A stretch of 42,889 nt of DNA from an uncultured Clostridia bacterium (GCA_947591055.1 CANQCW010000004.1:1-42889), one strand, 5' to 3'. Numbered from the stretch's first letter, positions 10,125 to 42,702 are shown. A program made the numbers and translations. Notes: a model not told the origin generated them from the letters alone.

Positions 10125-10134
10125 CTGTTTTCAT

Positions 10135-17062: not shown

Positions 17063-17260
17063 CGCCCCTATCTCCCGGCAAAGCCGGGTATGAAATAAGG
17101 CGCCTAAAAGGCTATAAAAAAAGAAAAACAAAAAAATCATATGCACCCCCGCACAGTAAAAAATCTAAAAAAATTATTCCGGCGTAGCCGGATTATCTAA
17201 AAGGTTACTTTAATTACTTGTGATCCACGGCGGTCTCACAAGATTCTTAGTTAAAGCCGT
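17063..17260. promoter_or_regulatory. GC-rich structured leader or operator region upstream of the surface-protein operon
   Basis: CCCGGC-AAA-GCCGGG (17074-17088), TCCGGC-GTA-GCCGGA (17178-17192), CTTGTGA..TCACAAG stem (~17217-17242). Confidence 0.45.
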
Positions 17261-17354
17261 TCAAAATTTTTAGAAAATAGTTTATTTTTCTATTTTTCTA
17301 TTTTATTTTATATATTTTGTGCTTTTTTGCACTTATTTTAGGAGGTTTTTTATT

Positions 17355-18020
17355 ATGAAAAAAATTACTATTTTATCTATCGTTATCGCTTTAGTTTTAG
17401 CTTGCGCTTTCGGTATTTCTGTTAATGCCGCTGACAATGCTTCTTTTAAGGCTGGCGATACTGTTGTTGTTGAATTTGATTTAAAGGGAACTATGCAAAA
17501 TGGTGATTACAAAGTAACATACAACGACGATGTTTTAACTTTTAAAAGTATTACTCCATGCGCTGACGGTGCTGCTTATACTAAAAATGCAGGCGAAGTT
17601 GTCGCTAGTTTCTTTACACCAGCTCAAAAAGTAGTTGTTACTTTTACAGCTAAAGCTGATTCTACTGTTGAAGCAGCTAACGTTACTTTAGTTCCTAAAC
17701 TTTTCACAAATACTGAAGGTGAAGATGTAAATGTTCAAGCAGGTTCACCTGTTGTAACTGTTACACCTGCAGCTATTGAAGAAAATGTTGTTGAAAACGA
17801 AGTTATAAATGAAGTACCTGCAAATGAAGTTGAAAATGAAGTTTCAAACGAGGTTGCAAATGAAGTTTCAAACGAAGTTTCAACACCTGCTACTTCTAAC
17901 ACTGTTAATAATGATGATGACAAAACTACTTACGATCAAACTGGTGCTAACATAGCTATCGTTGCTGTTGTTGCTCTTGCTGTTGTTCTTGGTTCTGCTA
18001 TCGTTATTAAAAGAAAATAA
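17355..18020 (+). CDS. Cell-wall anchor: signal peptide, cohesin-like domain, NEV-repeat linker, sortase-type signal (YDQTG + TM + KRK)
   Basis: AGGAGG RBS before ATG 17355. AGDTVVVEF..G.YKVTYNDDVLTF resembles a cohesin N-terminus. C-terminal sorting-signal architecture. Confidence 0.75.
   Translation: MKKITILSIVIALVLACAFGISVNAADNASFKAGDTVVVEFDLKGTMQNGDYKVTYNDDVLTFKSITPCADGAAYTKNAGEVVASFFTPAQKVVVTFTAKADSTVEAANVTLVPKLFTNTEGEDVNVQAGSPVVTVTPAAIEENVVENEVINEVPANEVENEVSNEVANEVSNEVSTPATSNTVNNDDDKTTYDQTGANIAIVAVVALAVVLGSAIVIKRK
17793..17883 (+). repeat. Coding ~12-bp tandem repeat (x-N-E-V), about 7 units
   Basis: ENEVINEVPANEVENEVSNEVANEVSNEVS. Confidence 0.8.
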
Positions 18021-18116
18021 TTTACTTTTTTAGTTTACTAATACTTATTTTAGAATGAAAATTATTTAAAAATTTATATTAAAAAAATAAAAAATAAAAA
18101 TATTTAAAAGATTATT

Positions 18117-18143
18117 TTAAGTGTATTAAAAAAATACACTTAA
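18117..18143 (+). promoter_or_regulatory. Intergenic stem-loop without U-tract
   Basis: TTAAGTGTATT-AAAAA-AATACACTTAA, about 15 bp before the RBS of 18172. Confidence 0.5.
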
Positions 18144-18171
18144 GTATATAAAATTTAAGGAGGAATAAAAA

Positions 18172-20115
18172 GTGAAGAAAAAGACTTTATTATTAACTAC
18201 ACTTGCTGGTTCTATGCTTATTGCTGGAATGGCAATGCCTACTACAAAGGCTGTTACTGATACTACAGCTATTGTTAATGAAGATAAAGAGATCGTTGCT
18301 GTTGAATTAGCTAACTCTGAAACTCAACTTTCTAAAGAACAATTAAAAACATTAATTGCCAAAGCTTATGAAGGCAAAAATTTAAAACCAGAAATTACTG
18401 TAGAAGGAGATGTTAAAACTGGTTCTACTGTAAAAGTTGGTGAAAACAAAACACTTACAGTTGTTGTTTACGGTGATGTTAATGGTGATGGTGCTGTTAA
18501 CTCAAAAGACGCTGTAGCTATTGCTAAACACTCAACAGGAGCAGAAACTCTTGAAGGTGCAGCTCTAATAGCTGCTGGTTTAGATAACAACACAGATAAT
18601 ATCAACTCTAAAGACGCTGTAAAAGTTGCTAAATTTTCAACAGGAGCACTTGAAGAATCTTTAGTTAAATCTGGTGTTAAAATTGAAGAAAAAATTAATC
18701 CAGAACAAGAAGTTCAGGAACACAAATGCACATACACACAAGGAGTATATGATAATATAGCAAAATCACATACATGGAAATGTACAGAATGTGGTGAATC
18801 TGGAGTAGAACCTTGTACATTTAGTGAATGGACATCAACAGATGGCAAAACTGCAAAAAGAACATGTCTATTATGTGGTGGTGTAGATACAGCAACCACA
18901 TTATCAGCTGCGTTAAGTGATGGAAGTACTAAAGAACTTACTGTAGATACAATAGATACTTCTGAAAATGAATTAACTATACCAAGAGGAACAACTGTAA
19001 CTGTAAATGAAGAAATAACAACAGCTAGTAATGATGTAACAGTAAATGGTACATTAGTTTTAAAAACAAAACAAGAAAATCTTAAATTAAAAGGTACAGG
19101 AACTGTTATCTATGCACCAGAAGTAGAAACACCAGAAGAATTTGCAGAACAATTTCCAAATGCCGAAGGTATATTAGGAGGAATACAAGCTGCAGATAAA
19201 GAAGCTGCAAAAGGCTTAAAATATGAAATAATAGTACCAAGCCTAAGTGAGGTACAAACAATAACAGAAGATACTCAAATAGAATTAGAAGCAGGATGGA
19301 ATTTAACAGTAGATTTAGGAAACAACATATTAACATCTAAAAACACAAATAATAACTTAATAAAAAATAGCGGAAATCTTACAATAAAAAATGGAACCTT
19401 GACAACTGCTGAGAAAAATAATAATCCTGTAATTAATGATCAAGGAAGTAGACTAACTTTAGAAAATGTTGATGTTAAAGGTAATAAAGGTATAAGAACA
19501 AATGGAAACTTAGGAGTTATTGGTGGAAAAATTGTATCAAAGAGTTATGATAATAATTCATATGCATTGGCAGTATTAACTGATGCAGAAACTCGTAGTA
19601 CTGCTGTGTTAAATAATGTAGATATTGTTGCACGAAACATCGGAGCATATATTGGAGGAGCTAATCATAGCTTAATTATGTACGGTGGAACGATAACCAC
19701 AAAAGGCTCAGAGAACAAAGATTATGCTTTAGCATCATACGCTACAGATGCAATTTTGAGCTTAGAAGGTACAAAAATACAATCTGACGACTTTGGTGTT
19801 TATTTACAAAATGGAGCAGAATCGGGTAAACCAGGTGATGTAGGAAACTTAGCTGAACTAAACAATGTCGAATTAACATCGGAAAAAGCAAGCATATGGG
19901 TAGCAGGTCAAAAAGATAGAGTAGAAGTTACAGGTGGTACAATAACAAGTAATGAAGAAGTAGTACTAAGAATATCTAGTAAAGACTGTGGACATAGCAT
20001 ATTAAAGGACTGTACTTTATCTGGTCACCCAACTGTGACATTTAATAGTAACATAACAGAGGAACAAAAGAATCAACTTGTTACTTTGACTGATGTAACA
20101 GAAAACAAAAAATAA
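18172..20115 (+). CDS. Expressed variable surface protein: constant region (signal peptide + dockerin, aa 1-~181) fused to a 470-aa variable cassette
   Basis: AGGAGG RBS and signal peptide. Duplicated GDVNGDGAVNSKDA / GLDNNTDNINSKDA dockerin repeats. Crossover motif at aa 178-181 (EQEV), then Cys/His pairs and beta-helix-like repeats. Confidence 0.88.
   Translation: MKKKTLLLTTLAGSMLIAGMAMPTTKAVTDTTAIVNEDKEIVAVELANSETQLSKEQLKTLIAKAYEGKNLKPEITVEGDVKTGSTVKVGENKTLTVVVYGDVNGDGAVNSKDAVAIAKHSTGAETLEGAALIAAGLDNNTDNINSKDAVKVAKFSTGALEESLVKSGVKIEEKINPEQEVQEHKCTYTQGVYDNIAKSHTWKCTECGESGVEPCTFSEWTSTDGKTAKRTCLLCGGVDTATTLSAALSDGSTKELTVDTIDTSENELTIPRGTTVTVNEEITTASNDVTVNGTLVLKTKQENLKLKGTGTVIYAPEVETPEEFAEQFPNAEGILGGIQAADKEAAKGLKYEIIVPSLSEVQTITEDTQIELEAGWNLTVDLGNNILTSKNTNNNLIKNSGNLTIKNGTLTTAEKNNNPVINDQGSRLTLENVDVKGNKGIRTNGNLGVIGGKIVSKSYDNNSYALAVLTDAETRSTAVLNNVDIVARNIGAYIGGANHSLIMYGGTITTKGSENKDYALASYATDAILSLEGTKIQSDDFGVYLQNGAESGKPGDVGNLAELNNVELTSEKASIWVAGQKDRVEVTGGTITSNEEVVLRISSKDCGHSILKDCTLSGHPTVTFNSNITEEQKNQLVTLTDVTENKK
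18702..18715 (+). repeat. Putative recombination site X (expression site)
   Basis: AGAACAAGAAGTTC, in frame as E-Q-E-V. Confidence 0.85.
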
Positions 20116-20175
20116 AAATTAATAATAAGTATTAGTGAACTTAATTGGATAATTAAAATTTATTCATTAAGAAAA

Positions 20176-20247: not shown

Positions 20248-23200
20248 TTATTTGCTTATATCTTCAACTTTTATTGTTAGGTAATTTATCTCATTTGTTT
20301 CTTTATTTTTGAATCCAATTGTCATCTCTGGTAATTCAGCTTCCCACCAAATTAAAATTTCTGTATCTTTTAAATCAAGTGATGAACTTGCAGTTACATC
20401 ATCCTCTGTAACTTGGTAGCCAGAAACAGGACCATCTGTATAAAGTTTGTCTCTTGAAATTCCTGTATCAACAATTAAAGCAAAATATGTTCTATCATTT
20501 TTAGAAGCATTATCTTCTGAAGTATATGCTTTAGTTTTAGTCTTATCAATTTTTACCGTTATAGTGTTTGTTTTTGGATCTACTTCTACAGAATTTATAG
20601 CATCCATATTTTTAGCAAATTCAGTATTATGATCGTCTTCTTTCATTATTTCTTTATTAAGTGCTTCTTTCACTTCGCTAGTTTCTTCAACGCTTAATGT
20701 TTCAGATTTTTGATTTAAAGTAACAATTGATTTTTTATTTAGAGTAAACTCAATTTCGTCTGAGTTAGTTTTAACACTATAAGAAGCTTCATTAGCTACA
20801 GAAGGTACTAGATAATATCCAAACCAATCAAGAAGTTTTGGAGTACTTGTTAATTTTTCACCAACAACAGTATTTCCTGTATAAGTTTTGTCAGTTATCA
20901 AAGTAACAGTATATTTATCACTCATACTTGTGTCACCAACTACAAGGCTTTTGAATACTGCTTTAGATATATCAACTTTACCAGATTTTACTTCTAAGCC
21001 AGTAATTTCTTGAGCATTAGTAAATACTCTTACAGCATTAGATTTATTAGCTGAGATTTCTAATCCATCTTGATTTGTTCCAACAAATTCAACATCAATT
21101 TGTTTTTCAACTTTAGATGAATCAATTGATAATTTATTGTTAGAACCAGTAAATGTAAATTTATCACCTTCTACTATAAATGGATTTATTTTTGATTCTT
21201 GTTTTATTTTCACTCCATTGATAGTAGTTGTTGTTCCAGTAGTAACTTCTACATTAACTGGGCTTGATGTATCTAAAGTTAAATCCATATTATCTTTACT
21301 GATGATTACTTTTTCAACTGATAATTCAGATAAATCAAATTTTTTTGCAGTATCTACTGTAATTTCGTTTAATTCACCAGTTACAGTTGTTGTATAATTA
21401 GCTTCACCAGTTATATTGACTTTTGCAGTTTTTGCAACTTTTGTTAAATCATATGTTGTATCTTTCTTATCATCATCTGTTAATGTTAAAGCTGTTATTT
21501 TATCATTTACTGATATTTTGTCATTATTGTCCATTTGATCTAAAACACTTATTATATTTAATACTTCTGGATAAATATCAGAAGAATATTCAGTCATTTT
21601 TTCACCTACATATAATGTGTTATCTTTATATGTAACTTGATTTGCCCCAAGTTTTGGTAAAACTGGAGAATCTTTTTCCACTTTTACATATGTGGCATTA
21701 GTAAATGCAAGTGCTGAAATTGGTGTTGTAACTTTAGCTTCATTAGAATAATATTTTGAACCATTAACTTCAGTTACAATCATAAATTTATATTCTTTTC
21801 CTGGATTTAAATTTTCTGCTACATTATATGGTAATGATGTAATTGCAGTACTATCCTCCACATAATCTTTATCTGATTCCACATAGTATAATTTATAATT
21901 TACTAAACTTGCTCTATTTTTACTTAAAATATCAAATAAATTATTAGAATCTAATAAAGTTCCTTTTAATTGTACTTTTCCATCTTCAAGTACTGCTCTT
22001 AAATCTTCAATTCTTGCTCCTTGATAATATTTCAAATTAGCTTGTTTGTCGCTACTACCACTAGCTTTCTTTATTTCATCTGAAGATTTATTTGCCATTA
22101 AAACGTCATCTTTAGCATTTGCAGTTACTTTAAATGAATATGTTCCTGCACCATATTTTTCTACTATAGATGATATATCAAAATTTGAAGTTTCAGTAGT
22201 TGTTGCTGATGATACAACATTATTATATTCTTTGTTTGTCTTAGTTGAATCATATTTTAAAATTTCAACTGTATAATCTTTTACTTTTGCTACATCTCCT
22301 GTAGGTGTCCATGATATTTTCTTTTCATTTTTGTCTAAAGTAATTGTTATTCCAGTAAGTACTGGTGATGTTGTTATTGTAACGCCTGTAGAAGAAACAT
22401 CAGTATAATCTTCGTTATCTGCAACTGCTATAACTGTCATATTGAAAGTTCCAGCATCTTGTTCCTTTAATATATCAAAGAAATCAACTTCTTTAGTTTC
22501 TCCTTTATTTACAACTGTTTCATAAACTATTTTATTAGTACTGTCTTTTAATATAACTCTATATTCAACAAATCCTTCAGTTTCTTCATTAAAATCCCAT
22601 TTATATGTAGCTTCTTTACTTGTCTCTTTTTCTACAGTTACTTTGCCTTCCATTGCATTAGCACCTTTTTTAGCAACCTTAATAGCTACAACATCTTTAG
22701 AATCTGTTCCAGAAGCAGTTTTTGCTGCTAAATATACAACACAAGCATCGTCACCTATATCAGTTGGAATAGGAATACTTGTAGTTTCATTAAAACTATT
22801 AATTTTGCTTGTATTACTTGCTGAATTACCAATTATATCAGCAACAGTTGGAGCAGGTTCTCCTACTTTCTTAACTAAGTAATATACTGTATCATTAGTA
22901 TTGGTTGATTTTAAATTTGTAATACTAGCTTGTGGCTTTTTCTTCTTATCAGCAGTACGATTAGCTTTTTCATATGTTACAACTGGAGCGTTTGCATATT
23001 TAGTTGCCGCTGTACCATTAGCTACTGTTGAAACATTACCTTCACTATCTCTTACTAATGCTTTAAGAGTTAATGTTCCTTCTTCTAATGAGCTTAAATC
23101 ACCACTAATTGTTTCATTAATATTTTTTGTTGTTAATTCTTTTGTCAAAGTTAAAGTATTTGGTTCGTCAGCAGAATCTGTAATATTAACTTCAAGAATT

Positions 23201-23592
23201 ACTGGAAGAATATTTGTATTTCCACCATTGAAAGTTACATCCATATTAACATTTTTAACATTTGAGGAATTAATTTCATTATCATTATTTCCAGATCCAG
23301 CTACAACTTTAAGTGAAGTAGGAGCAACTAATTTTTTAAATACAAAAGTTTTAGATTCTTCAAAAGAATTACTTTCATCAGTTATAAGTAATACATTTTC
23401 TTTATTTTCTTTTAGCTGTGAAATGCCATTAATTTTATAAATATTTTTATTAGATGAATCTTGAGTACCATCTACTAGAATATCATTTAATTTAAATCTA
23501 ATATCTTGTACTTCTTTATTTAATTTTACTGAGATATTTCCGCTAGCTTCAACTTCAAAAGAAACAATTTCAACATCTAGAACTTCTTGGTC
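20248..23592 (-). CDS. Silent cassette A (1114 aa from DQEV), Ig/FN3-like beta-rich surface protein C-terminus
   Basis: Frame runs through the site (DQEVLD). Only 7 codons upstream, no RBS or signal peptide. FN3-like W / Y.V patterns. Confidence 0.85.
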   Translation of the reverse strand, partial: DQEVLDVEIVSFEVEASGNISVKLNKEVQDIRFKLNDILVDGTQDSSNKNIYKINGISQLKENKENVLLITDESNSFEESKTFVFKKLVAPTSLKVVAGSGNNDNEINSSNVKNVNMDVTFNGGNTNILPVILEVNITDSADEPNTLTLTKELTTKNINETISGDLSSLEEGTLTLKALVRDSEGNVSTVANGTAATKYANAPVVTYEKANRTADKKKKPQASITNLKSTNTNDTVYYLVKKVGEPAPTVADIIGNSASNTSKINSFNETTSIPIPTDIGDDACVVYLAAKTASGTDSKDVVAIKVAKKGANAMEGKVTVEKETSKEATYKWDFNEETEGFVEYRVILKDSTNKIVYETVVNKGETKEVDFFDILKEQDAGTFNMTVIAVADNEDYTDVSSTGVTITTSPVLTGITITLDKNEKKISWTPTGDVAKVKDYTVEILKYDSTKTNKEYNNVVSSATTTETSNFDISSIVEKYGAGTYSFKVTANAKDDVLMANKSSDEIKKASGSSDKQANLKYYQGARIEDLRAVLEDGKVQLKGTLLDSNNLFDILSKNRASLVNYKLYYVESDKDYVEDSTAITSLPYNVAENLNPGKEYKFMIVTEVNGSKYYSNEAKVTTPISALAFTNATYVKVEKDSPVLPKLGANQVTYKDNTLYVGEKMTEYSSDIYPEVLNIISVLDQMDNNDKISVNDKITALTLTDDDKKDTTYDLTKVAKTAKVNITGEANYTTTVTGELNEITVDTAKKFDLSELSVEKVIISKDNMDLTLDTSSPVNVEVTTGTTTTINGVKIKQESKINPFIVEGDKFTFTGSNNKLSIDSSKVEKQIDVEFVGTNQDGLEISANKSNAVRVFTNAQEITGLEVKSGKVDISKAVFKSLVVGDTSMSDKYTVTLITDKTYTGNTVVGEKLTSTPKLLDWFGYYLVPSVANEASYSVKTNSDEIEFTLNKKSIVTLNQKSETLSVEETSEVKEALNKEIMKEDDHNTEFAKNMDAINSVEVDPKTNTITVKIDKTKTKAYTSEDNASKNDRTYFALIVDTGISRDKLYTDGPVSGYQVTEDDVTASSSLDLKDTEILIWWEAELPEMTIGFKNKETNEINYLTIKVEDISK

Positions 23593-25777: not shown

Positions 25778-25862
25778 TTATCTGTATTTGTAATAGGACA
25801 AACAATTGATAAATTTGTTTTTTCATTAAATATATTATTGCTTATTACAACAGCTAATCTAT
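25741..25862 (-). pseudogene. mazF: Internal fragment of a MazF/PemK toxin gene
   Basis: Translates YRLAVVISNNIFNEKTNLSIVCPITNTDNHFPLHIPLDNIT (MazF R.AVVISN...VCPIT core); no start codon; abuts site M. Confidence 0.8.
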
Positions 25863-25906
25863 AACTTCTTGGTCTAGCAAAAACGTTGAAAACCTTGAAA
25901 ATAGTG
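25862..25906 (-). repeat. Putative recombination site M (null cassette)
   Basis: 41/44 identical to site A; cassette frame reads DQEVID-stop. Confidence 0.85.
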
Positions 25907-27638: not shown

Positions 27639-27683
27639 CAGTGTTTTCAATACTTTCAACAATTTTTCTAGACCAAGAAGTTC
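27639..27683 (+). repeat. Putative recombination site B with extended arm
   Basis: 39/44 identical to site A; core AGACCAAGAAGTTC at 27670-27683. Confidence 0.88.
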
Positions 27684-30670
27684 CAGCGTTAGAAAAAGCC
27701 ATAGAAGATGCTTTAAAACAACTTGAAAAATATGATAACTTTATGAATTGTGATGATAATAAAGGTAGTTACGGAACAGAGATCGGATATTTAGAAACTG
27801 CTCAAGAAGATATAGAAAATGCAGAAACAGAAGAAGATGTAGCAGAAGCTCTTGATACCTTCTTATCTCAAATGGAAAAAGTAGATGAAGCAATTGCAGC
27901 ATTAGAAGAGAAAAAAGATGCAGCAATTGAAGATTTACAAGCTTATGCAGATGCATTAAATGATGTAAAAGGAATGAGCGCAGAAGACAAATCAAAAGTT
28001 AAAACTTTTGTAAAACAAGCTCAAGAAGCAGTAAAAGCCGCAAACTCTAACGAAGAAATAGAGGCAGCTACAGATACTTTTAATGAATTAATGGCAAGTT
28101 TTGAAGAAGTAAAAACTGCTAAAGAAAAGGCTGAAACACTTGCAGCATTAAATGATTATTTAGCAGAAGCAGAACCAGGAATGAAAAACGTTATAGAAAA
28201 AGCAATTGATGAAGTAAATAAAGCAACAACTGCTGAAGAAGTAAAAAATGCAGTTAACGGTCTTTTAGATGAAAAAACAGGAAAATTACCAACTCTAAAA
28301 GAAGCACAAAAAGCAGCATATGAAACACTATCAGCATATGAAGATTATTTAGCAAAAAATACAGTGGACGGAGAAAATTTAATTCTTGGAGAAATAGAAA
28401 CTGTAAAAGCAGCAATAGCTAATGCAGAAGATAAGTCTAATGTAGAAACAGCTATGGATGGATTTGATAATTTTATGGATGATTATGAAGACACAGTTAC
28501 TGCTGTTGAATTAGAAGTAGCAAAGAATGCATTAGACAATATGTATAAAGAAGTTACAGCAAAACTAAGTCCTTATGTATCAAGCACAGATAAAAATGTT
28601 AAAGATTTAGCAGATGCTGCAGTAAAATTATTTGATGAAATTAGAAAAGCCGGAGCCGAATCTGAAGAAAAAGATGATGTGGTGGAAGCAACTAATAGAA
28701 TAAAAGATTTATTCTATGGTAAAGGAAATCATGGATTACCAGCAGTAAATGAAGATAACTATGTTGTAGAATCAAATCTTAAAAGTTATTATAGTGAATC
28801 TAATATAGTAACTAACTTCTTAGGATATGAAAATGCATTAAAACACAATGCAGCAAAAACTGAAAAAGATGATAAAGCAGATAAATTAGGACGTGCAGAA
28901 GCATATAAATCAGCAATGGAAAAATTAGACTTATATACAACAGTAATAAATGACAATGATGCAGTTGAAGCATTAAAGTTAACAGAACAAAATGTAGCAA
29001 GTATCAAAGAAATGATAAGTTCAACAAAAACATCAGTAGAAAAAGCAGAAGGCAAAACTGCTGTAGATGATGCCAAAGCTATATTAGATAAATATTTAAA
29101 CAACTATTATGCAGAATTTGTAGAATATGCAGAAAACTATGAATTCGAAAGTACAAAAACAAGTGCTTTAAAAGAATTAGAAGCTTACAAAGAGCAATAT
29201 AAAGATGTTACTGAAGATGATACAATTTATGCACCAGTGAAAGATGCAGTAGATGATGCAATTACAGCTATTGAAGCATTAGAAGCTGACATAAATGAAG
29301 TTAGTGAAATAACAGAAGAATTAGAAACTGTAAAAGATGCAATTAAATTAGCAAACAAACAAGCAGAATTAAAATTAGCAGTAGATACAGCAGTAGCAAA
29401 ATATACACCACTATTAAAATCTGAAAGTGAAGAAGTAAAACAAGCAGCTGCAGCAGCAATAAAAGAACTTAGTGCTTTAAAATATAATGGATCAATTAAA
29501 AACACACCAAAAGACGTAGCTAAAATAGAAGAAAAATATGATCCTCAACTTAAAGAAGCACTAAAAGCTCAAGAAGAAAAAGATAAAAAAGAACGTGATG
29601 AAGCATTAGAACCAATAATGGATAAAGTTGACGAACTTATTGAAATAGCAACAGCAGGAAAGAGAACAGAAATAGTAAATCAATTAAATAATTTTAAATC
29701 AGAACTTAATAAAACAAAAACAGCTGAAGAAGTAAGAACAGTAAGTGGCCAATTAAATTCTTATATAAATGATTCATGTCAAATAGTAAGTGCTCAATAT
29801 GATGCGATATATAAAACATCAGTTGGATTATTAGACAAGTATAAAGAAATCTGTGGAAAAGATGAAGAAGCAAAAGCAATAGTAGACAAAGCAATAGCAG
29901 ATATCAAAGCAATAACAGAAACAGATATTGCAAGAGCACAAGCAGCAATTAATGCAATAGTTGGTGTAGGTGTATCTGACGAAAAAGAAACAGTTGCAAA
30001 GAAAATTGCTAAAATACAAGGTGAAATAACTAACTTAGACACTGAAAAAGAGAACGCTGTAAGAACTATTAATAATAAAATTGATGAATATCCAGAAGAT
30101 AAAGCAGCATTAAAGAATATAGTACAAGAATATATAGATGCAATAAATGCTGTAACAAGAAAAGGCAAAAATTATGAAACTACAATAAACAATATAGTAA
30201 CAGAAGCTGAAGCTGCAATACAAGATTATCTTGATGTTAAAATTTCTAATGAAGCAGAAAAAAATCTTAATATAAAAAGTGTTAAAAATGAAATAGGAGA
30301 ATCAACTACTTTTTTTGAATCTGGAAAAAAGGTTTCAGATTTACAAGAAAGTGTTAAAATAGTAGATGGAAAAGTTTCAGGAAAATTAAAAGAAGTAACC
30401 GATTTTACACAGTTTGGTGCTCCTGAAGGAGAAAACCATTTCTTAGCTTTAAAATTTGATAAAGGTTCTGCAGAAAGAGTTGAAATTCAATTAGTTAATG
30501 GTGATGAATCTAAGACTATCGGAGATTTAGATACTGACGGAATTGTAATAATAAGTTTTAAAGAAGAACAACAACTAACCACTAACAAAATGAAAGTAAA
30601 TTTTTATAATGAATCAAATGAATTAGTTAAAACTTTAACACTTGACTTATCAGGATTAAAGTTTGCTTAA
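27671..30670 (+). CDS. Silent cassette B (999 aa), alpha-helical bundle repeats (GA/DUF1542-like) with a beta C-terminal domain
   Basis: Begins DQEVPA. Upstream GTG 27641 lies inside the repeat and lacks an RBS and signal peptide. Ala/Glu/Lys-rich repeats. Confidence 0.85.
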   Translation, partial: DQEVPALEKAIEDALKQLEKYDNFMNCDDNKGSYGTEIGYLETAQEDIENAETEEDVAEALDTFLSQMEKVDEAIAALEEKKDAAIEDLQAYADALNDVKGMSAEDKSKVKTFVKQAQEAVKAANSNEEIEAATDTFNELMASFEEVKTAKEKAETLAALNDYLAEAEPGMKNVIEKAIDEVNKATTAEEVKNAVNGLLDEKTGKLPTLKEAQKAAYETLSAYEDYLAKNTVDGENLILGEIETVKAAIANAEDKSNVETAMDGFDNFMDDYEDTVTAVELEVAKNALDNMYKEVTAKLSPYVSSTDKNVKDLADAAVKLFDEIRKAGAESEEKDDVVEATNRIKDLFYGKGNHGLPAVNEDNYVVESNLKSYYSESNIVTNFLGYENALKHNAAKTEKDDKADKLGRAEAYKSAMEKLDLYTTVINDNDAVEALKLTEQNVASIKEMISSTKTSVEKAEGKTAVDDAKAILDKYLNNYYAEFVEYAENYEFESTKTSALKELEAYKEQYKDVTEDDTIYAPVKDAVDDAITAIEALEADINEVSEITEELETVKDAIKLANKQAELKLAVDTAVAKYTPLLKSESEEVKQAAAAAIKELSALKYNGSIKNTPKDVAKIEEKYDPQLKEALKAQEEKDKKERDEALEPIMDKVDELIEIATAGKRTEIVNQLNNFKSELNKTKTAEEVRTVSGQLNSYINDSCQIVSAQYDAIYKTSVGLLDKYKEICGKDEEAKAIVDKAIADIKAITETDIARAQAAINAIVGVGVSDEKETVAKKIAKIQGEITNLDTEKENAVRTINNKIDEYPEDKAALKNIVQEYIDAINAVTRKGKNYETTINNIVTEAEAAIQDYLDVKISNEAEKNLNIKSVKNEIGESTTFFESGKKVSDLQESVKIVDGKVSGKLKEVTDFTQFGAPEGENHFLALKFDKGSAERVEIQLVNGDESKTIGDLDTDGIVIISFKEEQQLTTNKMKVNFYNESNELVKTLTLDLSGLKFA

Positions 30671-30742: not shown

Positions 30743-33700
30743 CTATTTTAATCCTTGAATCTCTACTGATTCAGTTCCTTCATTTTCAATAGTTACTATA
30801 TTATTTACTCCATTTAATGTAACTTTTACATCTTCACTATCTACTCCAAAAGATGCTAAGAAGCTGTTTACTTCTGATAGAACTGTTTCTGTAATATCTG
30901 CTCCTACTGCAGTGTTTTTAGTTAATGCAGTTTTTAAATCTTCAACTGATTCATATTGTTTAATTGCTACTGTTTTTCCTTTTAAAACACTTGGAACGTT
31001 TTCTTCTACTACTGCTGTTATTTTTGCTGTTTTACCATCTTTTTTGCCTGATAATGTTACAGCTTTTCCACCTGTTAATTTATCTCCAGATACATCAACT
31101 TCTCCTTTTACTACTGTAACTTCTATATCACTTCCTACTGTTACATTTTCTTGAGTTACTGTTACTTTTCCACCATTTCCTTTTATTGTTATGCTTCCTT
31201 GTTGTGTTGTAGCTGTTCCGTCTGAACTTACAAATTTGATTGTTACATTTCCGTCATTTTGTCCTGCATCAACACTATTATTTAAGTTTTCAAATACTAA
31301 GTTGTTTGATTCTTCTCCATTTGCAACTACTGTTAATGTTGGATTATTACCTTCTATTATAGCTTTTACTGCTGTTTGTAATTTAGTTGTCATTTTAACA
31401 CCATTAATTGTTACTGTTGCTCCTTCTGCTACTATAAAGTTTCCTAATTCAGTAGCTCCTGTTTTTATTTTTACTCCATTACCTAATGTTACTACTTCGT
31501 CTTTATTCATTTTGAAATTACTTAAATCAAATTGCCCTGCTTTTAGATTTACTTCTGCTGGATATTTTTCTGATCCAGAACCGCCTATAGGTTTTCCAAT
31601 TTTTCTTTCATAATCGCTACCAGTAATGTTTAGTGTTTTTCCTTCTAAGTAATTAGCATACATAAATGATGCATCTTCTTCAGAATTTGCCTTATCTTTA
31701 TTTAATTCTAAATCTATTACATCACCATTTATTGTAACTTTATCACCATTTTTTAATTTTGAAAGGAAAGCTTTTAAGTTAGTAAATTCTCCTTTTAAAT
31801 TTGTATCACTAAAATCGTTTCCTTTGAATTCTTCTCCTTCAATTACAATTTTTCCATCACTTCCTACTGAATAAAAGTTATTTGCATTTGCTTTGCAATC
31901 TTCTTTAGTTTCAGTGCAAGTTAAGCCATTTACTCTTGGCATTGTGTGACCATTTGCAATTACATCGCTCCATCCTTCAAATTCTCCACATCTTGTAATT
32001 AGTCTAAATTGATATTCTGTATATGCTTCTAATCCGCTTACTGTGAAATATGTTGCTGTTATATTTCCATCTTCATCTTTATCATAAGTTGTTACTACTT
32101 CTGATGTTCCCATATCTTTGTAGTTAGTCTCATCAACTTTTTTATAAACTCTTACAGCATATGTTAAATCTGAATCTTCTTCTCCGTATGCGCATTTATT
32201 TGCATAGTATGGAGCTTTTTTATTTGTTGCTGTATCTAATTTAAATGTCATTGTACTATCTGAAGCGTCTGTTATTTTCGCATCTCTATATGGTGCACAG
32301 AAATAGTAATATTCTGGTTGTGAATTTACATAGATTATATTCTTATTAGTATTGTTCTTATCTTCTTCTTTCATTTTTTCACTATCTGCAGTTGCAACTA
32401 CTTCTGCATAATATCCATAGTTACGATTTAATTTTCTAGTTTTTGTCCAGTTTTCACCTACATAATTATCATTATCTGTAGCATAATAAATTGATTTATT
32501 ATTTGATTTAGTTGTTGTAGATGTTATTCTAGCATTTGGATCAAATACACCAGTTTCTGTGTCTTCTAAGTATAATTTTACTGTGTATCCTCCACAGTTT
32601 ACATCATTTTCATCCCATGATAGTTTTGGATATCCATTACTTTCATCTACAGATAATTTTATATTACTTACTGGATTTACAGCTTTTACTGTTACTGTTT
32701 CTGATTTAAATTCATCAGAATTTATTGTATTTGTTGCTTCACTTGCTATATTTCCTTTAGTTACTACTGTTATATAGTATTCTCCTGCTTCTAAAGCAGA
32801 TGTTGGATCATTGTAATTTCTTAATGTAAATTTTGTACTTCCTGCTTCTGTTTCATAATAAATTTCTCCATCTTTATATAATGTTACAATATATCCATTG
32901 TTTAAATAAGTACTTGTATGAGGATTGTTCCAAGTAAAATCTCCGTTTTCACTTGTAGGTAATGTTACACTACTAATTTTTTCTTCTTTAGTTGCCTTTA
33001 CATCATCTGCCATATCTACTTGTGGTATACTTACTGCACAATCAGCTAATACAGTTTGACTTCCATATGAATTTTCTACTATGTAGAATATTCTATATAA
33101 ATTATCGTTATTTAATCCGTCAATTACTTCATCAATTGAATCTCCATTGACTGTTATTTTTCTTGTTACTGGAGTATAACTACTGCTATTCTTTATGTTT
33201 GAGTTTGAAAACTCTTTTGTTTTTGCATCCCATTTTACTGCATCAGTAGCACTTAATTCTGTTTTTAAAGCATTATCTGGAACAGCACAATAATAAATTG
33301 TTGTTACATCACTTTCACCATATCTTGTTGCATTAAAAATAGCATTGTCTGTATTACTACGTTTTACACTAACTTTTGCAACTGTTGGCTCTACAGTATT
33401 TTTAGTTACTTTTACTTCTCCTAATGGTGTTTCATACTTTGTATCTTCTGCATCAAATAATCTAAAATATATTGTTCCATCTGATATATGTGGATATCCT
33501 CCAACTAAATCTTGATGATTTTTTTCATCTTTTGTTACATCAATTTTTGATTGGCTTGCGCCTACTGTAACTTTCATTTCATTTTCATCACTACTTGTTT
33601 CAGGTGTTACTGTTGCAGGTAAACCACTTATACTTAGTTTTCTTCCACTTTCATCAAATGCTACTAATTGAAGAGAAGTATCATCAGGGATATCTTCGTC

Positions 33701-33799
33701 ATAAGAAACAGAGATGTCTAAATTCTCTTGATTTACGTTGTTAATGATATTGTTTTCATTTACTGTTATTGTGTAATTGTAATCCTGAACTTCTTGGTC
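30743..33799 (-). CDS. Silent cassette C (1018 aa), FN3-like surface protein C-terminus
   Basis: Frame open for 74 codons upstream of the track's ATG 33577 (DQEVQDYNYTITVNENNII...); TGA immediately before the site. Confidence 0.88.
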   Translation of the reverse strand, partial: DQEVQDYNYTITVNENNIINNVNQENLDISVSYDEDIPDDTSLQLVAFDESGRKLSISGLPATVTPETSSDENEMKVTVGASQSKIDVTKDEKNHQDLVGGYPHISDGTIYFRLFDAEDTKYETPLGEVKVTKNTVEPTVAKVSVKRSNTDNAIFNATRYGESDVTTIYYCAVPDNALKTELSATDAVKWDAKTKEFSNSNIKNSSSYTPVTRKITVNGDSIDEVIDGLNNDNLYRIFYIVENSYGSQTVLADCAVSIPQVDMADDVKATKEEKISSVTLPTSENGDFTWNNPHTSTYLNNGYIVTLYKDGEIYYETEAGSTKFTLRNYNDPTSALEAGEYYITVVTKGNIASEATNTINSDEFKSETVTVKAVNPVSNIKLSVDESNGYPKLSWDENDVNCGGYTVKLYLEDTETGVFDPNARITSTTTKSNNKSIYYATDNDNYVGENWTKTRKLNRNYGYYAEVVATADSEKMKEEDKNNTNKNIIYVNSQPEYYYFCAPYRDAKITDASDSTMTFKLDTATNKKAPYYANKCAYGEEDSDLTYAVRVYKKVDETNYKDMGTSEVVTTYDKDEDGNITATYFTVSGLEAYTEYQFRLITRCGEFEGWSDVIANGHTMPRVNGLTCTETKEDCKANANNFYSVGSDGKIVIEGEEFKGNDFSDTNLKGEFTNLKAFLSKLKNGDKVTINGDVIDLELNKDKANSEEDASFMYANYLEGKTLNITGSDYERKIGKPIGGSGSEKYPAEVNLKAGQFDLSNFKMNKDEVVTLGNGVKIKTGATELGNFIVAEGATVTINGVKMTTKLQTAVKAIIEGNNPTLTVVANGEESNNLVFENLNNSVDAGQNDGNVTIKFVSSDGTATTQQGSITIKGNGGKVTVTQENVTVGSDIEVTVVKGEVDVSGDKLTGGKAVTLSGKKDGKTAKITAVVEENVPSVLKGKTVAIKQYESVEDLKTALTKNTAVGADITETVLSEVNSFLASFGVDSEDVKVTLNGVNNIVTIENEGTESVEIQGLK

Positions 33800-36773: not shown

Positions 36774-36787
36774 AGACCAAGAAGTTC
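36774..36787 (+). repeat. Putative recombination site D
   Basis: AGACCAAGAAGTTC(AGGACC); in-frame TAA three codons upstream. Confidence 0.88.
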
Positions 36788-39702
36788 AGGACCATAATTA
36801 CACAATGACAGTTAATGGCAATAATATAATAAATAATGAAAACATAGCAAAAAGTATAATAACAGTAGATTTAGAAAAATCCTCTGATACAGATACTAAA
36901 GGCTTGAAACTTTCATATTATAAAGATGATGATGGAGATGGAAAATTAAATACTAAAGCTACAACAGTAAAAGTTGATACAATAGCTAAATACACAACAC
37001 ATGCTGAAATAAAAGATAATAATGGTACAGTAGAATTTAATTTTGAACAATTACCAGAAGGTAAAAATGTTATCCAATTATTAGATAGTACAGGAAAAGT
37101 ACTTACAGAAACAATAGTTACTAAAGATACATTAACAATACCTGTAGCTGTTGAGGTTACAACAAAACGTATAGATACATCAAAAGCATCTATGTCTTTC
37201 AAAGCTAAAGAAGGTAGCGATATTGTAAAAATGTATTATGCTGTACTTCCAGTAAGTAATGATAATAGTACAATTAGATATGTTGATATAACAAATGCAA
37301 TAAAGAAAATATCAAATGGAGATTCTGCAGATAATAGTATTGTAGCTGCTGCAGAAGTAGAAGTAAAAGATAATAAATTTGAGGGCACAATAGCTACAAA
37401 TTTAGTTAATAATACAGCTTATAGAGTTATATATGTAGTAGAAAATTCTCTAGGAAATAGATTTTATGGAAAAGATTCGACTAAAGGAACAAATGTAGTA
37501 GCTAGCAAACCTGTAACAACAAAAGCAACAATAGCTAAAGACGTTTATGGAACAAATGCAGAAAAAGAAGTTAAAAGTATTACACTTCCAGATTTAGAAA
37601 ATAATGGACCTGCAGATGCTAACTTTGAATGGACATTATCAAAAACAGAAACAGAAGATGTTTCAGCAAAAACATTCAAAGTAGAAGTTCTTGATGAAAA
37701 AGGAAAAGTTTTAAATGAAGTTGAAATCACAGGTACAAATACAGCTTCTTTAAATGAATTAGGTATAACAACTCCAGGAACATATAAAATAAAAGTTACA
37801 GTAAAAGGAAAAGATAATGGTAATACATCTGCTTCTGAATCAGTAGAATCAAAAACAATAACAATTGATTCATATGAAGCTGTAAAAAATATTGAATTTG
37901 TTAATGAAGATAATGAGAAAACATTAACATGGGAAAGTAATTATACTATAATCAATGAAGAAGGCGAAGGAAATATTGCTGGATATATAGTAGATTTATA
38001 TGAATATGATACAAAAACAGATGAATATAAGAAATTAGTATCAGCATCAAATCTATCTTCAAAAGAAAAGAAATTAGATATATCAGCATATATTACAGCA
38101 AATAAACTTTATAAAGCAGAAGTTAGAGTTGAAGCTAATCCTAACCAATCTGCTAAATTAACAGCTGAAGTTGGAGAATCAAAAGAATTTTTCGTATTAG
38201 CAGGTACATCTATATCAGTATCTAAAGACGAAAATAAAAAAGATAAAATAACAACAGATTCTGTTACATTAAAAGCTACTAAGGCTGTTGTAGGAAATAA
38301 AGAAGTATCATACGATTTAAGAGTATGGAAGAAAAATACTAATACAGGAGATTTTGATGGTGCTAGATATGCTGAAGTAACAAATAAATATATGTCAAAT
38401 GTTCAATTAAGCGAAACTAGTGAAGTTGAAGTTACTGGACTAGAAGAAGGAGCAACATATAGATTTGAATTAATAGTTAAAGTTGATAGTGCAGAAGCTT
38501 CTAGAACAACAGGTGATATTACATTATTAAAATTACCTATAGAGATAAAAGGATTAGTAGTATCTGAAACACCAGGAGAAGGAAAAATAGCAAAAACAAC
38601 TGATGGAATAAGTATAGATGACGTAGAAGTAAAATCTACAGATTTTGTAAAATATGCAAATAGTGCAGAACTAACTGTAGTATCAAGCTTGTTACAAAAT
38701 ACACCATCTCTAGTTTATGGAGATAAGATAACTTTAGACGAAGATAAACTAACAGTTGAATTACAAGCACAAGCATCAACTTCATCTGTAGCTGCAAGAG
38801 ATTTTGGAAACAAATTAGAAGGAATGACAGTTGAATTAAAAGGAAATACTTCTGATAAAATAATTAAAACAACAGCTAATACTAAAGGACCTAAAGAAAT
38901 TATATTATCTGAAGGAAGTAACTTTGATATATCAGGAGTTACTGCTGAAAAAATAACATTAAAGAATAATGTTAGCGTTAAAACTGGAATAAATAAAGTA
39001 ACAGTTGCTGATGGTGCTACAGTTACAATAAATGGAGTTATAGTTACAGCTAAAAATACAGAACTTACATTAAAATCTGATGCACAAGGTACTAAAAACT
39101 TTACAGTTGATCCAACAGGAAGTGGAGTTAACGCTGATATAACATTTGAAAATACTACAACTGATGCTGTTACAATAAATTTTGTTGGAGAAAATGATTT
39201 AAGTGGAAGACAACAAGGTTCTATCACAATTAGATCTGCTTCAGGAAAAGTAACATTATCATCTCAAAATTTCAATATTGAAAGTAAAATAGATGTTGTT
39301 GTTGAAAAAGGTGAAGTTGATATTTCTAGCAAATTCTTAACAGGTGATAAGACTGTAAGTGTAAAATCTGCTGATTCTAAAAATACTGCTAAAGTAACTA
39401 TAGAAGGACCAGAAGTTCCAACAGAGATAGCCAATGTTAAAATTGATAAGTATACATTAATTGATAGAAGCGAAAGTAGTTTAAAATCATTCTTTAATTC
39501 TTCAAGTAACCAAAGTAAAAATATAATAGATAAAACAGTTTCTTTATCTAACACAAAAGCAGTTAAAGAATACTTCGATAGTTTTAAAGAATTCTTCGAT
39601 AAAGGTGCTACATTATCTAAAGCTGCTAATTCAACAACTGTAACAATTACTTTTACAAAAGCAGTTGATGGAGCTATAGATATGTCTAACTTGACAAAAT
39701 AA
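36775..39702 (+). CDS. Silent cassette D (975 aa), FN3-like, paralog of C and E
   Basis: DQEVQDHNYTMTVNGNNII; no RBS or signal peptide; shares GATVTINGV, QQGSITI and KGEVD with C. Confidence 0.88.
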   Translation, partial: DQEVQDHNYTMTVNGNNIINNENIAKSIITVDLEKSSDTDTKGLKLSYYKDDDGDGKLNTKATTVKVDTIAKYTTHAEIKDNNGTVEFNFEQLPEGKNVIQLLDSTGKVLTETIVTKDTLTIPVAVEVTTKRIDTSKASMSFKAKEGSDIVKMYYAVLPVSNDNSTIRYVDITNAIKKISNGDSADNSIVAAAEVEVKDNKFEGTIATNLVNNTAYRVIYVVENSLGNRFYGKDSTKGTNVVASKPVTTKATIAKDVYGTNAEKEVKSITLPDLENNGPADANFEWTLSKTETEDVSAKTFKVEVLDEKGKVLNEVEITGTNTASLNELGITTPGTYKIKVTVKGKDNGNTSASESVESKTITIDSYEAVKNIEFVNEDNEKTLTWESNYTIINEEGEGNIAGYIVDLYEYDTKTDEYKKLVSASNLSSKEKKLDISAYITANKLYKAEVRVEANPNQSAKLTAEVGESKEFFVLAGTSISVSKDENKKDKITTDSVTLKATKAVVGNKEVSYDLRVWKKNTNTGDFDGARYAEVTNKYMSNVQLSETSEVEVTGLEEGATYRFELIVKVDSAEASRTTGDITLLKLPIEIKGLVVSETPGEGKIAKTTDGISIDDVEVKSTDFVKYANSAELTVVSSLLQNTPSLVYGDKITLDEDKLTVELQAQASTSSVAARDFGNKLEGMTVELKGNTSDKIIKTTANTKGPKEIILSEGSNFDISGVTAEKITLKNNVSVKTGINKVTVADGATVTINGVIVTAKNTELTLKSDAQGTKNFTVDPTGSGVNADITFENTTTDAVTINFVGENDLSGRQQGSITIRSASGKVTLSSQNFNIESKIDVVVEKGEVDISSKFLTGDKTVSVKSADSKNTAKVTIEGPEVPTEIANVKIDKYTLIDRSESSLKSFFNSSSNQSKNIIDKTVSLSNTKAVKEYFDSFKEFFDKGATLSKAANSTTVTITFTKAVDGAIDMSNLTK

Positions 39703-39876: not shown

Positions 39877-42702
39877 TTATTTTAATCCTTCAATATTAAC
39901 TGAAACTTGATTTCCTCTGTCATCCACTGTTTTATTTAATGAAATTGTTACTATGTTTCCTTTAGCTTCTAAAATCTTAGCACCATATTTTGTAGTTCCA
40001 CCATAAGTTGTTCCATATAATGTCGTAAATTTAGATAAATATGCATTTAATTTAGCAAGATTTTCTGCTTTTTTGTCTGGATCAACATCATATAATCCTG
40101 TAACTGCTTTGCTAAGTACTGAATTAGCTTTACTAATGTCAGAAATATTATATTCCTTTATATCTATTGCAGTTTTTATTTCAAATGGAGTTATATCAGC
40201 AGTTTTAACTTTTATTGTTTTAGCTCCAGTTGTAGTATTTGTTATTGTAACATTTTGTGCTCCTGATAAGTTACTTCCACTTAAATCAACTGTACCATCT
40301 GTAACATTAACTGTTATATCAGCTGAAAATGCTAATGAATTAGCTGTAACTGTAACATTTCCTTTTGCAGTAATATCTAATTTTCCAGATTGTGCATTTG
40401 TATCTGTTCCATCTCCATTAACAATTATATTTAAACCATTAGTATCTTCACTATTTAATATAATATTATTACTTGGTGTTGCAGAAATGGTAACGTTTGA
40501 GCTAACATCTATTGTAGTATCTGTTGAAACATTGATTTTAATTTTTTTATCCATAAAGTTAACTGGAGAAGCTCCTTCATTAGCCATAATAACAACTTTT
40601 GTTGCACCCTTAATTGTTGAACCTGCATTAATTTTTATTTCTTTTTGACTTGTAAGTCCTGTAATATCTAATGATTCATTATTTCCAGAAATTATTATAT
40701 TTCCTCCAACATTTCCTGTGATTCTTTGAGAGAAATTTCCTCCTTCTAAGTAAAGATCTCTATTTCCAATTGTCGTTCCTAATGCTCTTACTCTAGATCC
40801 TGTGTCTAATGCACAAAGTTTAACAGTTACAACATCTGATGTATATGTTAATATATCACCTACAACAAGATTATCAACTATATTTTTAATTTCTGCTAAT
40901 TCAGCTGGGTATTCTGCTGTCTTATATTCTTTTCCATCTACACTTATTCCATTAGTTGTTTTAGCAATTTCTCCTACTTTAGTTGTTACATTGTCTGCTA
41001 CAACTGTTTTATTTTCAATAGTTGGCATTGCTAATCTTGTATCAAACTCTGCACTATATCCAGAAACACCTTCAATACCATTTACTGTTGCATATAATCT
41101 AATTACATATTTTGTACCTGGTTGTAATCCTTTAACATCAAATGTTCCATCTGCTTTTACAGTAACATCTTGAGTTAATTTTGATACTTCTTTATATTTT
41201 CCATCAAATAATCCATCTGGATCATTTGTATTATATAAGAATACTTTTACTCTATATGTTGGGGTCATGCCTGAAACTTCACGACTAGTTATTTTAAATG
41301 TAGCTGAATCTGACCCAGCTATGCCTTCTATTGCTGGCGTATAGACTTTAAAGAATTCCTTTGATTTAACTTCATCTGAATCTACTACAGATAATTTATC
41401 GCCTGTTGCTTTTGTTGTAACATAAGCTTTATATAATACATTATCTGTCATTGAAGATATACCTTCAATTTTTGTATCTTCTACTGGAGATCCACTAGTT
41501 AATTGTACTTTATTTGTATAATCTTTATTTGATATATCATATCCATATAAATCTACATTGTATCCCTTAACATCTTCTGCTGGTGATGTACTAGCATCCC
41601 ATGTTAATACAGAGTTATTATATTTATCTACATCTAATTTTATATTGTCTGCATTAACTGCATCTAATTTAGAAACTGTTGTTTCATTTGATTTAAATGT
41701 AGCTGATGGTAATTTATTACCAGATCCTTCTCCGTATACTTCAAAGTAATATGTTCCTGCTGTAAGAGGAGAAGATACAAATGTATCAAGAGTTGTACTT
41801 AAAACTGCGATTCCTGTTTTTTCTTCTATAGCTTTTCCATCTCTATATAATACAACTGTAAATTTATTTGATCCTATTGTTTCTCCTTCAGCTAATTTCC
41901 ATGTAAGTTGAACATCTGATAATTTGTTAACTGTAGCTACATCAGTAATTTTTGCATCTACTATAGTTGGAGCTAAAGTTGTAGCACCATCTTTTTCCCA
42001 TGGAATAAGAGCCTTTTCTGAAAGAACTGAAGTTGATACATTTCCATATTCATCTTCTAATATAAAATATACATCAAATGTTTTATCTTCATAAGTTGTT
42101 TCATCTGTTAATAAAATTGGTGCTTCTACTACTTTGTTATTAGTAATTTGAATATATTTTGCCTCTTTCAAATCTCCAAATTCTGATACATTAGAAGGTG
42201 CACTTGAACTACTTGTAGCAGCACTATTAGCTTTTTTTAAGTAATAAGCTTTTACTATATTATCTTCACTTTTAACACTAAAAGATACAGTTCCTGTTGA
42301 AGATGCTGGACGATTTCCTTTTAATCCAACAAGTTTTGTATCTTTCATTGCATTTGTGCGAGCATCTAATTTAAATTCAGCCAATGTACCAACTTTGGTA
42401 TTACCAGACATTTCTACTAATCTAAATTTATATACTTTATCTTGCGTAATTACACGAGATAAATTCATTTTAGGTAAATCAATTTTAGATGTATTTGCTG
42501 GTATTGTTATAGTACTTGGACTAGTTGAAATTACACTACCTAATGTTCCATCATCGTTTACCAAATATATTTTAGCAAATTTAGATGTGTCTAATTCACT
42601 TTTTATACGTAGACTTGTTTCTACAGCTCCAACATTCTTATTATTTACATATTTGCCAACAGGAGTAACTGTAAAGTTACCATCCCCTGGAACTTCTTGT
42701 TC
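39877..42702 (-). CDS. Silent cassette E (941 aa), FN3-like
   Basis: Frame open for 46 codons upstream of the track start (EQEVPGDGNFTVTPVG...); TGA immediately before the site. Confidence 0.88.
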   Translation of the reverse strand, partial: EQEVPGDGNFTVTPVGKYVNNKNVGAVETSLRIKSELDTSKFAKIYLVNDDGTLGSVISTSPSTITIPANTSKIDLPKMNLSRVITQDKVYKFRLVEMSGNTKVGTLAEFKLDARTNAMKDTKLVGLKGNRPASSTGTVSFSVKSEDNIVKAYYLKKANSAATSSSSAPSNVSEFGDLKEAKYIQITNNKVVEAPILLTDETTYEDKTFDVYFILEDEYGNVSTSVLSEKALIPWEKDGATTLAPTIVDAKITDVATVNKLSDVQLTWKLAEGETIGSNKFTVVLYRDGKAIEEKTGIAVLSTTLDTFVSSPLTAGTYYFEVYGEGSGNKLPSATFKSNETTVSKLDAVNADNIKLDVDKYNNSVLTWDASTSPAEDVKGYNVDLYGYDISNKDYTNKVQLTSGSPVEDTKIEGISSMTDNVLYKAYVTTKATGDKLSVVDSDEVKSKEFFKVYTPAIEGIAGSDSATFKITSREVSGMTPTYRVKVFLYNTNDPDGLFDGKYKEVSKLTQDVTVKADGTFDVKGLQPGTKYVIRLYATVNGIEGVSGYSAEFDTRLAMPTIENKTVVADNVTTKVGEIAKTTNGISVDGKEYKTAEYPAELAEIKNIVDNLVVGDILTYTSDVVTVKLCALDTGSRVRALGTTIGNRDLYLEGGNFSQRITGNVGGNIIISGNNESLDITGLTSQKEIKINAGSTIKGATKVVIMANEGASPVNFMDKKIKINVSTDTTIDVSSNVTISATPSNNIILNSEDTNGLNIIVNGDGTDTNAQSGKLDITAKGNVTVTANSLAFSADITVNVTDGTVDLSGSNLSGAQNVTITNTTTGAKTIKVKTADITPFEIKTAIDIKEYNISDISKANSVLSKAVTGLYDVDPDKKAENLAKLNAYLSKFTTLYGTTYGGTTKYGAKILEAKGNIVTISLNKTVDDRGNQVSVNIEGLK

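Follow-up and report, generated by a model that had tools for sequence, protein, structure and literature searches.

The familiar role of cohesin-dockerin pairs is to hold cellulosomes together, and in a few cases they anchor other proteins. The NagJ cohesin and NagH dockerin modules of C. perfringens lie inside large secreted glycoside hydrolases, where they join enzymes to each other. In the vsa locus of Mycoplasma pulmonis and in the R64 shufflon, the constant 5' part, which supplies promoter, signal and anchor, is joined by inversion at short cores to silent 3' cassettes. In Ruminococcus flavefaciens and R. bromii, the sortase-anchored single-cohesin proteins ScaE and Sca2, respectively, anchor dockerin proteins, and Sca2 is reported also to bind the dockerins of non-amylase proteins (PMC4611034). 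In Cellulosilyticum lentocellum (C. lentocellum), the adjacent single cohesin and dockerin genes ClcC and ClcD have products that heterodimerize (PMC13487519). Here we analyze a stretch of DNA from an uncultured Clostridia bacterium (GCA_947591055.1, CANQCW010000004.1; the complete contig C4 of 42,889 bp, hereafter the window) in which a putative anchoring gene, gene A (17355..18020, + strand), precedes gene B (18172..20115, +), the expressed copy of a candidate variable surface protein. The genome (1.25 Mb in 100 contigs, ~27% G+C) is 69% complete, and the runs containing the stretch are all labelled gut metagenomes. Judging from predicted fold, homology and conserved gene order, there is a reasonably good case that gene A and gene B form a fixed plug and socket for a surface protein whose C-terminal part would be swapped by inversion.

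Like ScaE and Sca2, the predicted product of gene A is small and secreted, has a single cohesin and ends in a sortase-type signal. Unlike in those systems, the predicted partner dockerin is N-terminal and lies on a large, non-enzymatic protein with a C-terminus apparently exchanged by inversion; gene A and gene B adjoin and appear to be matched one to one, the sorting motif is YDQTG, and gene A falls below the Pfam Cohesin cut-off. ClcC and ClcD differ from gene A and gene B in that both serve cellulase activity, with no anchor and no variation system involved; the ClcC/ClcD heterodimer, together with ScaE and Sca2, supports reading adjacency as partnership. The C. perfringens modules (2ozn, 2jh2, 2o4e) match the gene A domain best, in structure as in sequence, and likewise form cohesin-dockerin pairs outside cellulose degradation, but they are not a cell anchor and have no link to a variable gene. 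With vsa and R64 the locus has in common one expression site, a constant 5' part, repeated short cores and alternative silent 3' cassettes; the constant part of vsa is a lipid anchor, whereas that of gene B is a predicted dockerin that would need a separate cohesin protein.

In the arrangement that we favor, three steps are proposed: binding between the gene A and gene B products, cleavage by a sortase, and inversion that is active in this strain. Gene A would specify a single-cohesin anchoring protein exported via Sec; its tail would hold it on the cell, linked to the wall if a sortase cuts and embedded in the membrane if not, and an acidic (N-E-V-x) stalk would keep the cohesin at a distance from the surface. 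Gene B would specify the displayed protein, with a Ca-type dockerin docking non-covalently in the gene A cohesin. Site-specific inversion at an 11-bp core could fuse its constant part with any one of five cassettes that have neither promoter nor start and would need no anchor of their own because attachment is through the N-terminus, and inversion to an orphan core would yield a product of little more than a signal peptide and a dockerin.

Gene A is read as a secreted, C-terminally anchored single-cohesin protein of 221 amino acids (aa) on the basis of its open reading frame (ORF; ATG at 17355, stop at 18018-20), a good ribosome-binding site and 10 homologues; matches of similar length among 5.8 billion proteins amount to ten, gene A itself included. 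Its N-terminus, MKKITILSIVIALVLACAFGISVNA, reads by eye as a Sec signal peptide (residues 1-25, ...SVNA followed by AD; 17355..17429, +) and is conserved in the alignment. The predicted cohesin-like beta-sandwich domain (residues 26-141; 17430..17777, +) is followed by the acidic (N-E-V-x) stalk (residues 142-192; 17778..17930, +), which has repeat families D8/D9 and a predicted local distance difference test (pLDDT) below 50; its DNA has a 12-nt period with 7.6 copies over 17790-17883 in Tandem Repeats Finder (TRF). The sorting-signal-like tail (residues 193-221; 17931..18017, +), identified from the homologue alignment, consists of YDQTG, 21 hydrophobic residues and KRK, so that the C-terminus reads TYDQTG-ANIAIVAVVALAVVLGSAIVI-KRK. 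The signal peptide, beta domain, NEV stalk and YDQTG-hydrophobic-KRK ending that the initial annotation had listed for gene A are therefore all in the sequence.

That annotation had also taken the beta domain to be a cohesin, and the structural comparisons agree. The AlphaFold2 (AF2) model has eight strands across residues 36-136 (36-56 to 133-136), and its 10-residue blocks over residues 31-130 have pLDDT values of 73-90. In Foldseek it is closest to the C. perfringens cohesins 2jh2, 2w1n and 2vo8 (E 1e-7 to 5e-7), with cellulosomal cohesins next, and in a VIA structural search of 48,161 chains the top 11 are all cohesins (Z 12.1-10.1, 112-128 residues aligned). Sequence profiles point the same way: a profile of the gene A family (A1) matches the NagJ cohesin chains 2jh2, 2o4e and 2ozn over the full domain (E 0.006-0.01) as well as the syntenic homologue at locus L056 (E 2e-19), which reaches 32.9 bits with Pfam Cohesin. 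A second profile (A4), built from the gene A domain and four syntenic relatives that each score below the Pfam Cohesin cut-off, gave 618 matches at E<=1e-3 among 1.84 billion proteins. We scanned 41 of the top 45 with Pfam, omitting four proteins of >2,800 residues; 28 reach the Cohesin cut-off, 2 lie just below it and 11 have no match. Scaffoldins account for many of the 28; these have 3-8 cohesins together with CBM2, CBM3, GH9, SLH or dockerin modules. By modelled fold and by homology, gene A is a short, divergent cohesin.

Several results weigh against this assignment. The check with the Pfam Cohesin model (PF00963) that the initial annotation had proposed for gene A failed, with no match at E<=0.01, at E<=10 or in a six-frame search of the genome, and the domain spans ~115 residues compared with the 139 positions of that model. 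Pilin and Ig-like adhesin domains follow closely in the VIA search (Z 10.0-9.0), so the fold alone does not separate them sharply from cohesins. The rank-1 match of A4 is a 31-repeat DUF11 protein, which means that this profile is not exclusive to cohesins, and the 11 of 41 scanned matches lacking Cohesin belong here too. Against the Pfam cohesins of the same genome, hhalign aligns just 47 columns of A1 (probability 87%), and the best hit of a domain-only A1 profile is the C6 cohesin, at E 0.074; a full-length A1 match to an own-genome cohesin (E 3.8e-6) was discounted, as it leans on the signal peptide. The missing Pfam match, the proximity of pilin and adhesin folds and the DUF11-repeat protein at the top of the A4 search would all suit a cohesin-fold surface protein that binds no dockerin, such as a small adhesin or a pilin-like sortase substrate, the adjacency being explained by a shared sortase operon; a sortase gene does adjoin in relatives. 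We nonetheless judge this improbable, since cohesins make up all of the top 11 structural matches and 28 of the 41 top sequence matches, syntenic homologues reach the Pfam Cohesin cut-off, and the neighboring gene always carries a dockerin, a module for which we know of no other partner class.

Gene B (647 aa, GTG start) begins with a constant 5' part (18172..18704, +) made up of a putative signal peptide (residues 1-27), a small alpha/beta domain (~30-99), a dockerin (100-160) and a linker. The dockerin module (18469..18651, +), with two Ca-loop and helix segments, is recovered by Pfam, by a profile of seven constant regions (A2), by Foldseek and by VIA. Pfam Dockerin_1 (PF00404) matches residues 100-153 (nt 18469-18630) at 24.1 bits, or at 25.2 bits with the constant part alone and 26.2 bits in the six-frame search, a small margin over the cut-off of 22.9. 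The A2 profile matches 22 solved dockerins (best E 4.5e-13), and the top Foldseek matches of the constant part are dockerins (e.g., 2ccl_B, template modelling (TM) score 0.81 on the target, root-mean-square deviation 2.6). A wide VIA search returned just 19 chains at Z>=2, and dockerins take the first 13 places (Z 6.0-3.2). Within the module, 45 nt are duplicated (18499-18543 and 18604-18648, 82% identical), covering the two helix segments and encoding NSKDAVAIAKHSTGA and NSKDAVKVAKFSTGA; this duplication and the Pfam match above cut-off agree with the duplicated Ca-loop dockerin motif previously noted in this region. The first Ca loop is canonical, with 12 residues (D102-V-N-G-D-G-A-V-N-S-K-D113). 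Counting against a regular dockerin, the second (D138...D148) is one residue short at 11, with D, N, D, N and D kept, and the pLDDT of the gene B model drops below 50 at residues 139-142. Taking models and profiles together, we conclude that gene B has a dockerin in its constant part. For the small domain (30-99), ubiquitin-like matches at Z 2.0-2.1 were not convincing. Prediction of a complex between gene A residues 24-142 and gene B residues 62-172, from separate thin alignments and without controls, scored 0.06 and 0.07, where the mark is 0.32; this weighs neither way on binding.

The pairing of the two domains is argued from gene order in relatives. At locus L041, a gene A homologue (42% identity) is followed ~210 nt on by a 981-aa gene with the N-terminal layout of gene B. 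The constant-region profile matched 177 of 201 family genomes, because dockerins are common in the family, and we sampled the 29 best foreign loci, 20 with an N-terminal dockerin and 9 with the dockerin elsewhere in the protein. A small cohesin-like gene (own hidden Markov models (HMMs), E<0.01) lies directly upstream in 15 of the 20 N-terminal-dockerin loci, which span several genera, with four lacking one, and in just 2 of the 9 others; because relatedness makes the genomes dependent samples, the counts are to be taken as a description of a conserved module, not as a statistic, and the contrast is no more than indicative. The upstream neighbors usually carry a sorting signal (LPQTG, TYAKTG, FDPTG, KDAKTG), and in 11 loci a sortase gene lies beside them. 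Pfam Cohesin, applied to 17 small neighbors, reaches its cut-off in 6 and falls just below in 3; the neighbor at L060 scores just below the cut-off.

The same genome holds further pairs. On C24, the gene for a 1590-aa protein that has its dockerin at the C-terminus precedes those for a 285-aa cohesin protein bearing IPQTG and a sortase, in that order, and C30 has a similar pair with LPATG. On C6 (30631-32568), a GH5 cellulase (Pfam E 2.5e-70) has a gene B-like N-terminus of signal, small domain and dockerin-like segment (profile E 1.2e-21); after it comes an anchor-less Pfam cohesin of 142 aa, making a minimal enzyme pair. The description of the system as non-cellulosomal thus stands for the gene A/gene B pair alone, as this genome also places an N-terminal-dockerin GH5 cellulase beside a small cohesin. 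Three large proteins have a cohesin right after the signal peptide: C2 49208-56917 (2569 aa), C3 12324-16217 (1297 aa) and C19 3527-6775 (1082 aa). Those on C3 and C19 have a Pfam-positive dockerin a few hundred residues on, the dockerin match on C2 being weak (12.4 bits, below cut-off), and the layout is reminiscent of the self-binding Amy4 of R. bromii.

These genes also bear on the identity of the partners. The genome encodes six Pfam-positive cohesins elsewhere, which are possible real partners and in that respect tell against the pairing that we favor, and five further Pfam-positive dockerins. The gene B dockerin might accordingly dock to another cohesin, either an anchored one (C24, C30) or one of the large proteins on C2, C3 and C19, leaving gene A to take a different dockerin and making adjacency no sign of a cognate pair; the anchored cohesin Sca2 of R. 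bromii binds several dockerins (PMC4611034). The other cohesin genes of the genome each adjoin a dockerin gene of their own, and the upstream cohesin-like gene in 15/20 as opposed to 2/9 loci, if indicative only for related genomes, favors the adjacent partner. We hold an exchange of partners to be improbable, and keep to gene A as the likely socket for gene B.

The relatives G171 and G408 have the sortase, cohesin and N-terminal-dockerin module with no cassettes and no matching inverted repeats in 12.8-16.5 kb, which speaks against a device built for variation. The exact core was not found in 74 loci of relatives, and three loci of 12.8-16.5 kb gave AT-rich chance repeats only. Because the module occurs in relatives lacking cassettes, N-terminal docking would be older than the shufflon, and from these comparisons of gene content it looks like an older display system exploited by the shufflon rather than a device that arose for swapping. 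The notion of a constant socket, put forward in the initial annotation, is accordingly retained in part: domain identities, the conserved gene pair and the anchor-less cassettes agree with it, but docking appears to predate the swapping.

How the gene A product is held on the cell was assessed from its tail and from the sortase genes. From T192 onward, 27 of 30 positions are unchanged in 10/10 homologues, and TYDQTGAN wholly so, compared with domain identities of 44-47% in the three most divergent homologues. The layout of sortase substrates (motif, hydrophobic stretch and basic tail) is present. On the opposite side of the balance, no Pfam sorting-signal family matches gene A even at E<=10, NCBIfam Rumino_NPXTG reaches 20.5 bits (below the cut-off of 23.5), and YDQTG does not have the usual proline; signals elsewhere in the genome are of the xPxTG type (IPQTG, IPKTG, TPKTG, MPRTG). 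The sortase gene beside gene A is also reduced to an 83-nt 3'-end remnant (17194..17276, +) directly upstream, encoding ...KVTLITCDP / GGLTRFLVKAVQNF and a stop codon, which is 97.6% identical to the end of a fuller sortase gene in the same genome (C90 26-684, -), and that fuller copy reads in three frames. In both C90 and the relative G408 (L072 6760-7560, -), the two shifts occur at CC(A/T)-CGG and each is +1; CGG is the rarest Arg codon, with 38 of 239,454 codons in 462 long ORFs. The three-frame sortase could be either a case of programmed +1 frameshifting or a shared pseudogene, and anchoring of gene A in this strain is uncertain.

The remnant adjoins a stretch (17040-17194) that stands in place of the sortase gene body and is richer in GC (34-46% per 50-nt window, flanks 18-22%), with three short hairpins and no match to any Rfam family in a gathering-score search. 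A contig from another sample (X4) covers 16952-17260, and the junction with the sortase remnant is therefore not an assembly artefact.

The departure of YDQTG from LPXTG and from the xPxTG signals of the genome, the truncated neighboring sortase and the C90 copy that is twice out of frame are compatible with a pair that binds but in which gene A is left uncut, as a type-I membrane protein with a C-terminal helix and a ~50-residue stalk across the wall. This variant we consider unlikely. The near-invariance of TYDQTGAN and the tail in 10/10 homologues, while the domain falls to 44-47%, points to recognition by an enzyme; the homologues of relatives carry LPQTG, TYAKTG or FDPTG beside a sortase gene; and other parts of the genome hold four intact sortase genes that score over cut-off.

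The variable part of the system is defined by the 11-bp core CCAAGAAGTTC (CCARGAAGTTC), which has 7 copies with <=1 mismatch in the window against 0.83 expected, a number reached in 0 of 100 shuffles. Three cores are on the + and four on the - strand, and they are flanked by inverted-repeat arms of 40-74 nt. The expression-site core, ACAAGAAGTTC (18705..18715, +), encodes QEV and is placed 20 residues behind the dockerin; the current variable C-terminal part (18716..20115, +) has 469 aa from QEV and matches no Pfam family. Five putative silent cassettes follow: c1 (20248..23590, -; 1113 aa in frame from the core at 23580-23590), c2 (27673..30670, +; 998 aa from the core), c3 (30743..33797, -; 1017 aa), c4 (36777..39702, +; 974 aa) and c5 (39877..42700, -; 940 aa). 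All five (940-1113 residues; three -, two +) are in frame from QEV, have no start and are preceded by stop codons just upstream. The orphan core, CCAAGAAGTTA (25862..25872, -), leads into just 5 codons; the 55-nt segment that contains it duplicates the c1 junction with 91% identity.

No cassette has a membrane segment or sorting signal (maximum 19-residue Kyte-Doolittle mean outside the signal peptide, 1.26), and no carbohydrate-active enzyme (CAZyme) family was found in gene B or the five cassettes (Pfam, E<=0.01). The initial annotation, which had cassettes ending in neither a transmembrane segment nor a sorting signal and no evident CAZyme domain, was correct in both respects. In the relatives P0011 and P0012, one constant region is fused to c1-like and to c3/c4/c5-like C-termini, respectively, the c1 homologue on the dockerin constant region of P0011 being 39.7% identical over 340 aa. 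A shared constant region with differing C-termini is the expected footprint of cassette exchange.

Some observations weigh against active inversion. Unlike in vsa and R64, no recombinase gene was found in the window (ORFs of >=84 aa by Pfam and small inter-cassette ORFs by eye, with serine recombinases not searched); four tyrosine-recombinase genes lie on other contigs, none linked to the locus, and the contig ends 189 nt beyond the last core. Nor did runs X1, X3, X4 and X5, examined as contigs rather than reads, contain a clean strand-changing joint at the cores when compared with 16900-36890 at 90% likeness. Contigs of X3 and X5 end at 18698-18774 and 23629, beside cores, which fits branching there, though any repeat could cause it. 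Many joints in the X contigs with sides of 20-26 nt in AT-rich DNA were not trusted.

Other variation was seen between gene A and gene B. A second form of the locus, present alongside the first in X1 and X3, skips 121 nt of the spacer between the two genes (window 18022-18144; depth 44-55, 57-nt sides), and it also has two base changes, at 17976 and 17978.

The spacers between cassettes (23792-27458 and 33973-36436) are filled with genes of toxin-antitoxin or defence type: a split AAA_14/DUF4143 ATPase, two nucleotidyltransferase genes, and AbiEii with an AbiEi-like gene. Two paralogous RelB/YoeB-like pairs (26037-26559 and 33973-34504; 71-73% DNA identity) were read by eye. Outside the cassette region, a ToxN toxin gene lies within 9590-10232 (Pfam E 7e-40), closely preceded on its strand by three direct repeats of 36 nt, the arrangement that a ToxI-type RNA antitoxin would show; these had no match in the gathering-score search of Rfam, and the same holds for a second set of 36-nt repeats at the contig start (1-134), which matches the end of contig C56. 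That search of the window returned one tRNA and nothing else. At 4354-4704, an AT-rich unit of 13 nt is repeated in a long array (at least 18 registers), between a gene with an RNase III domain and a GTPase gene.

In word searches of a limited literature set, we found no publication joining a dockerin with a shufflon or, among the papers listed, with an inverton or inversion; one review touched on most of the terms dockerin, cohesin, phase variation and invertible together, and none on all. Gene A and gene B probably represent the known principle of cohesin-dockerin surface anchoring, newly coupled to a multi-cassette inversion system. We put forward more tentatively, as less likely than not, that a dedicated sortase, a small anchored cohesin and an N-terminal-dockerin protein make up a general wall-display module of this family of small-genome gut Clostridia, here coupled by a shufflon to antigenic variation with five heads of ~1000 residues and a near-empty plug, the sortase perhaps being controlled by two +1 frame changes at CGG.

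If the proposed arrangement is true, a cohesin-dockerin pair would serve as the unchanging point of attachment for a surface protein with an exposed part that inversion changes. It would also answer how a wall-bearing Gram-positive can vary the C-terminal bulk of a surface protein even though the usual wall anchor is itself C-terminal. The sortase, cohesin and N-terminal-dockerin module would make surface display in an uncultured lineage of the gut accessible to tests, and it could serve as a natural N-terminal display system.

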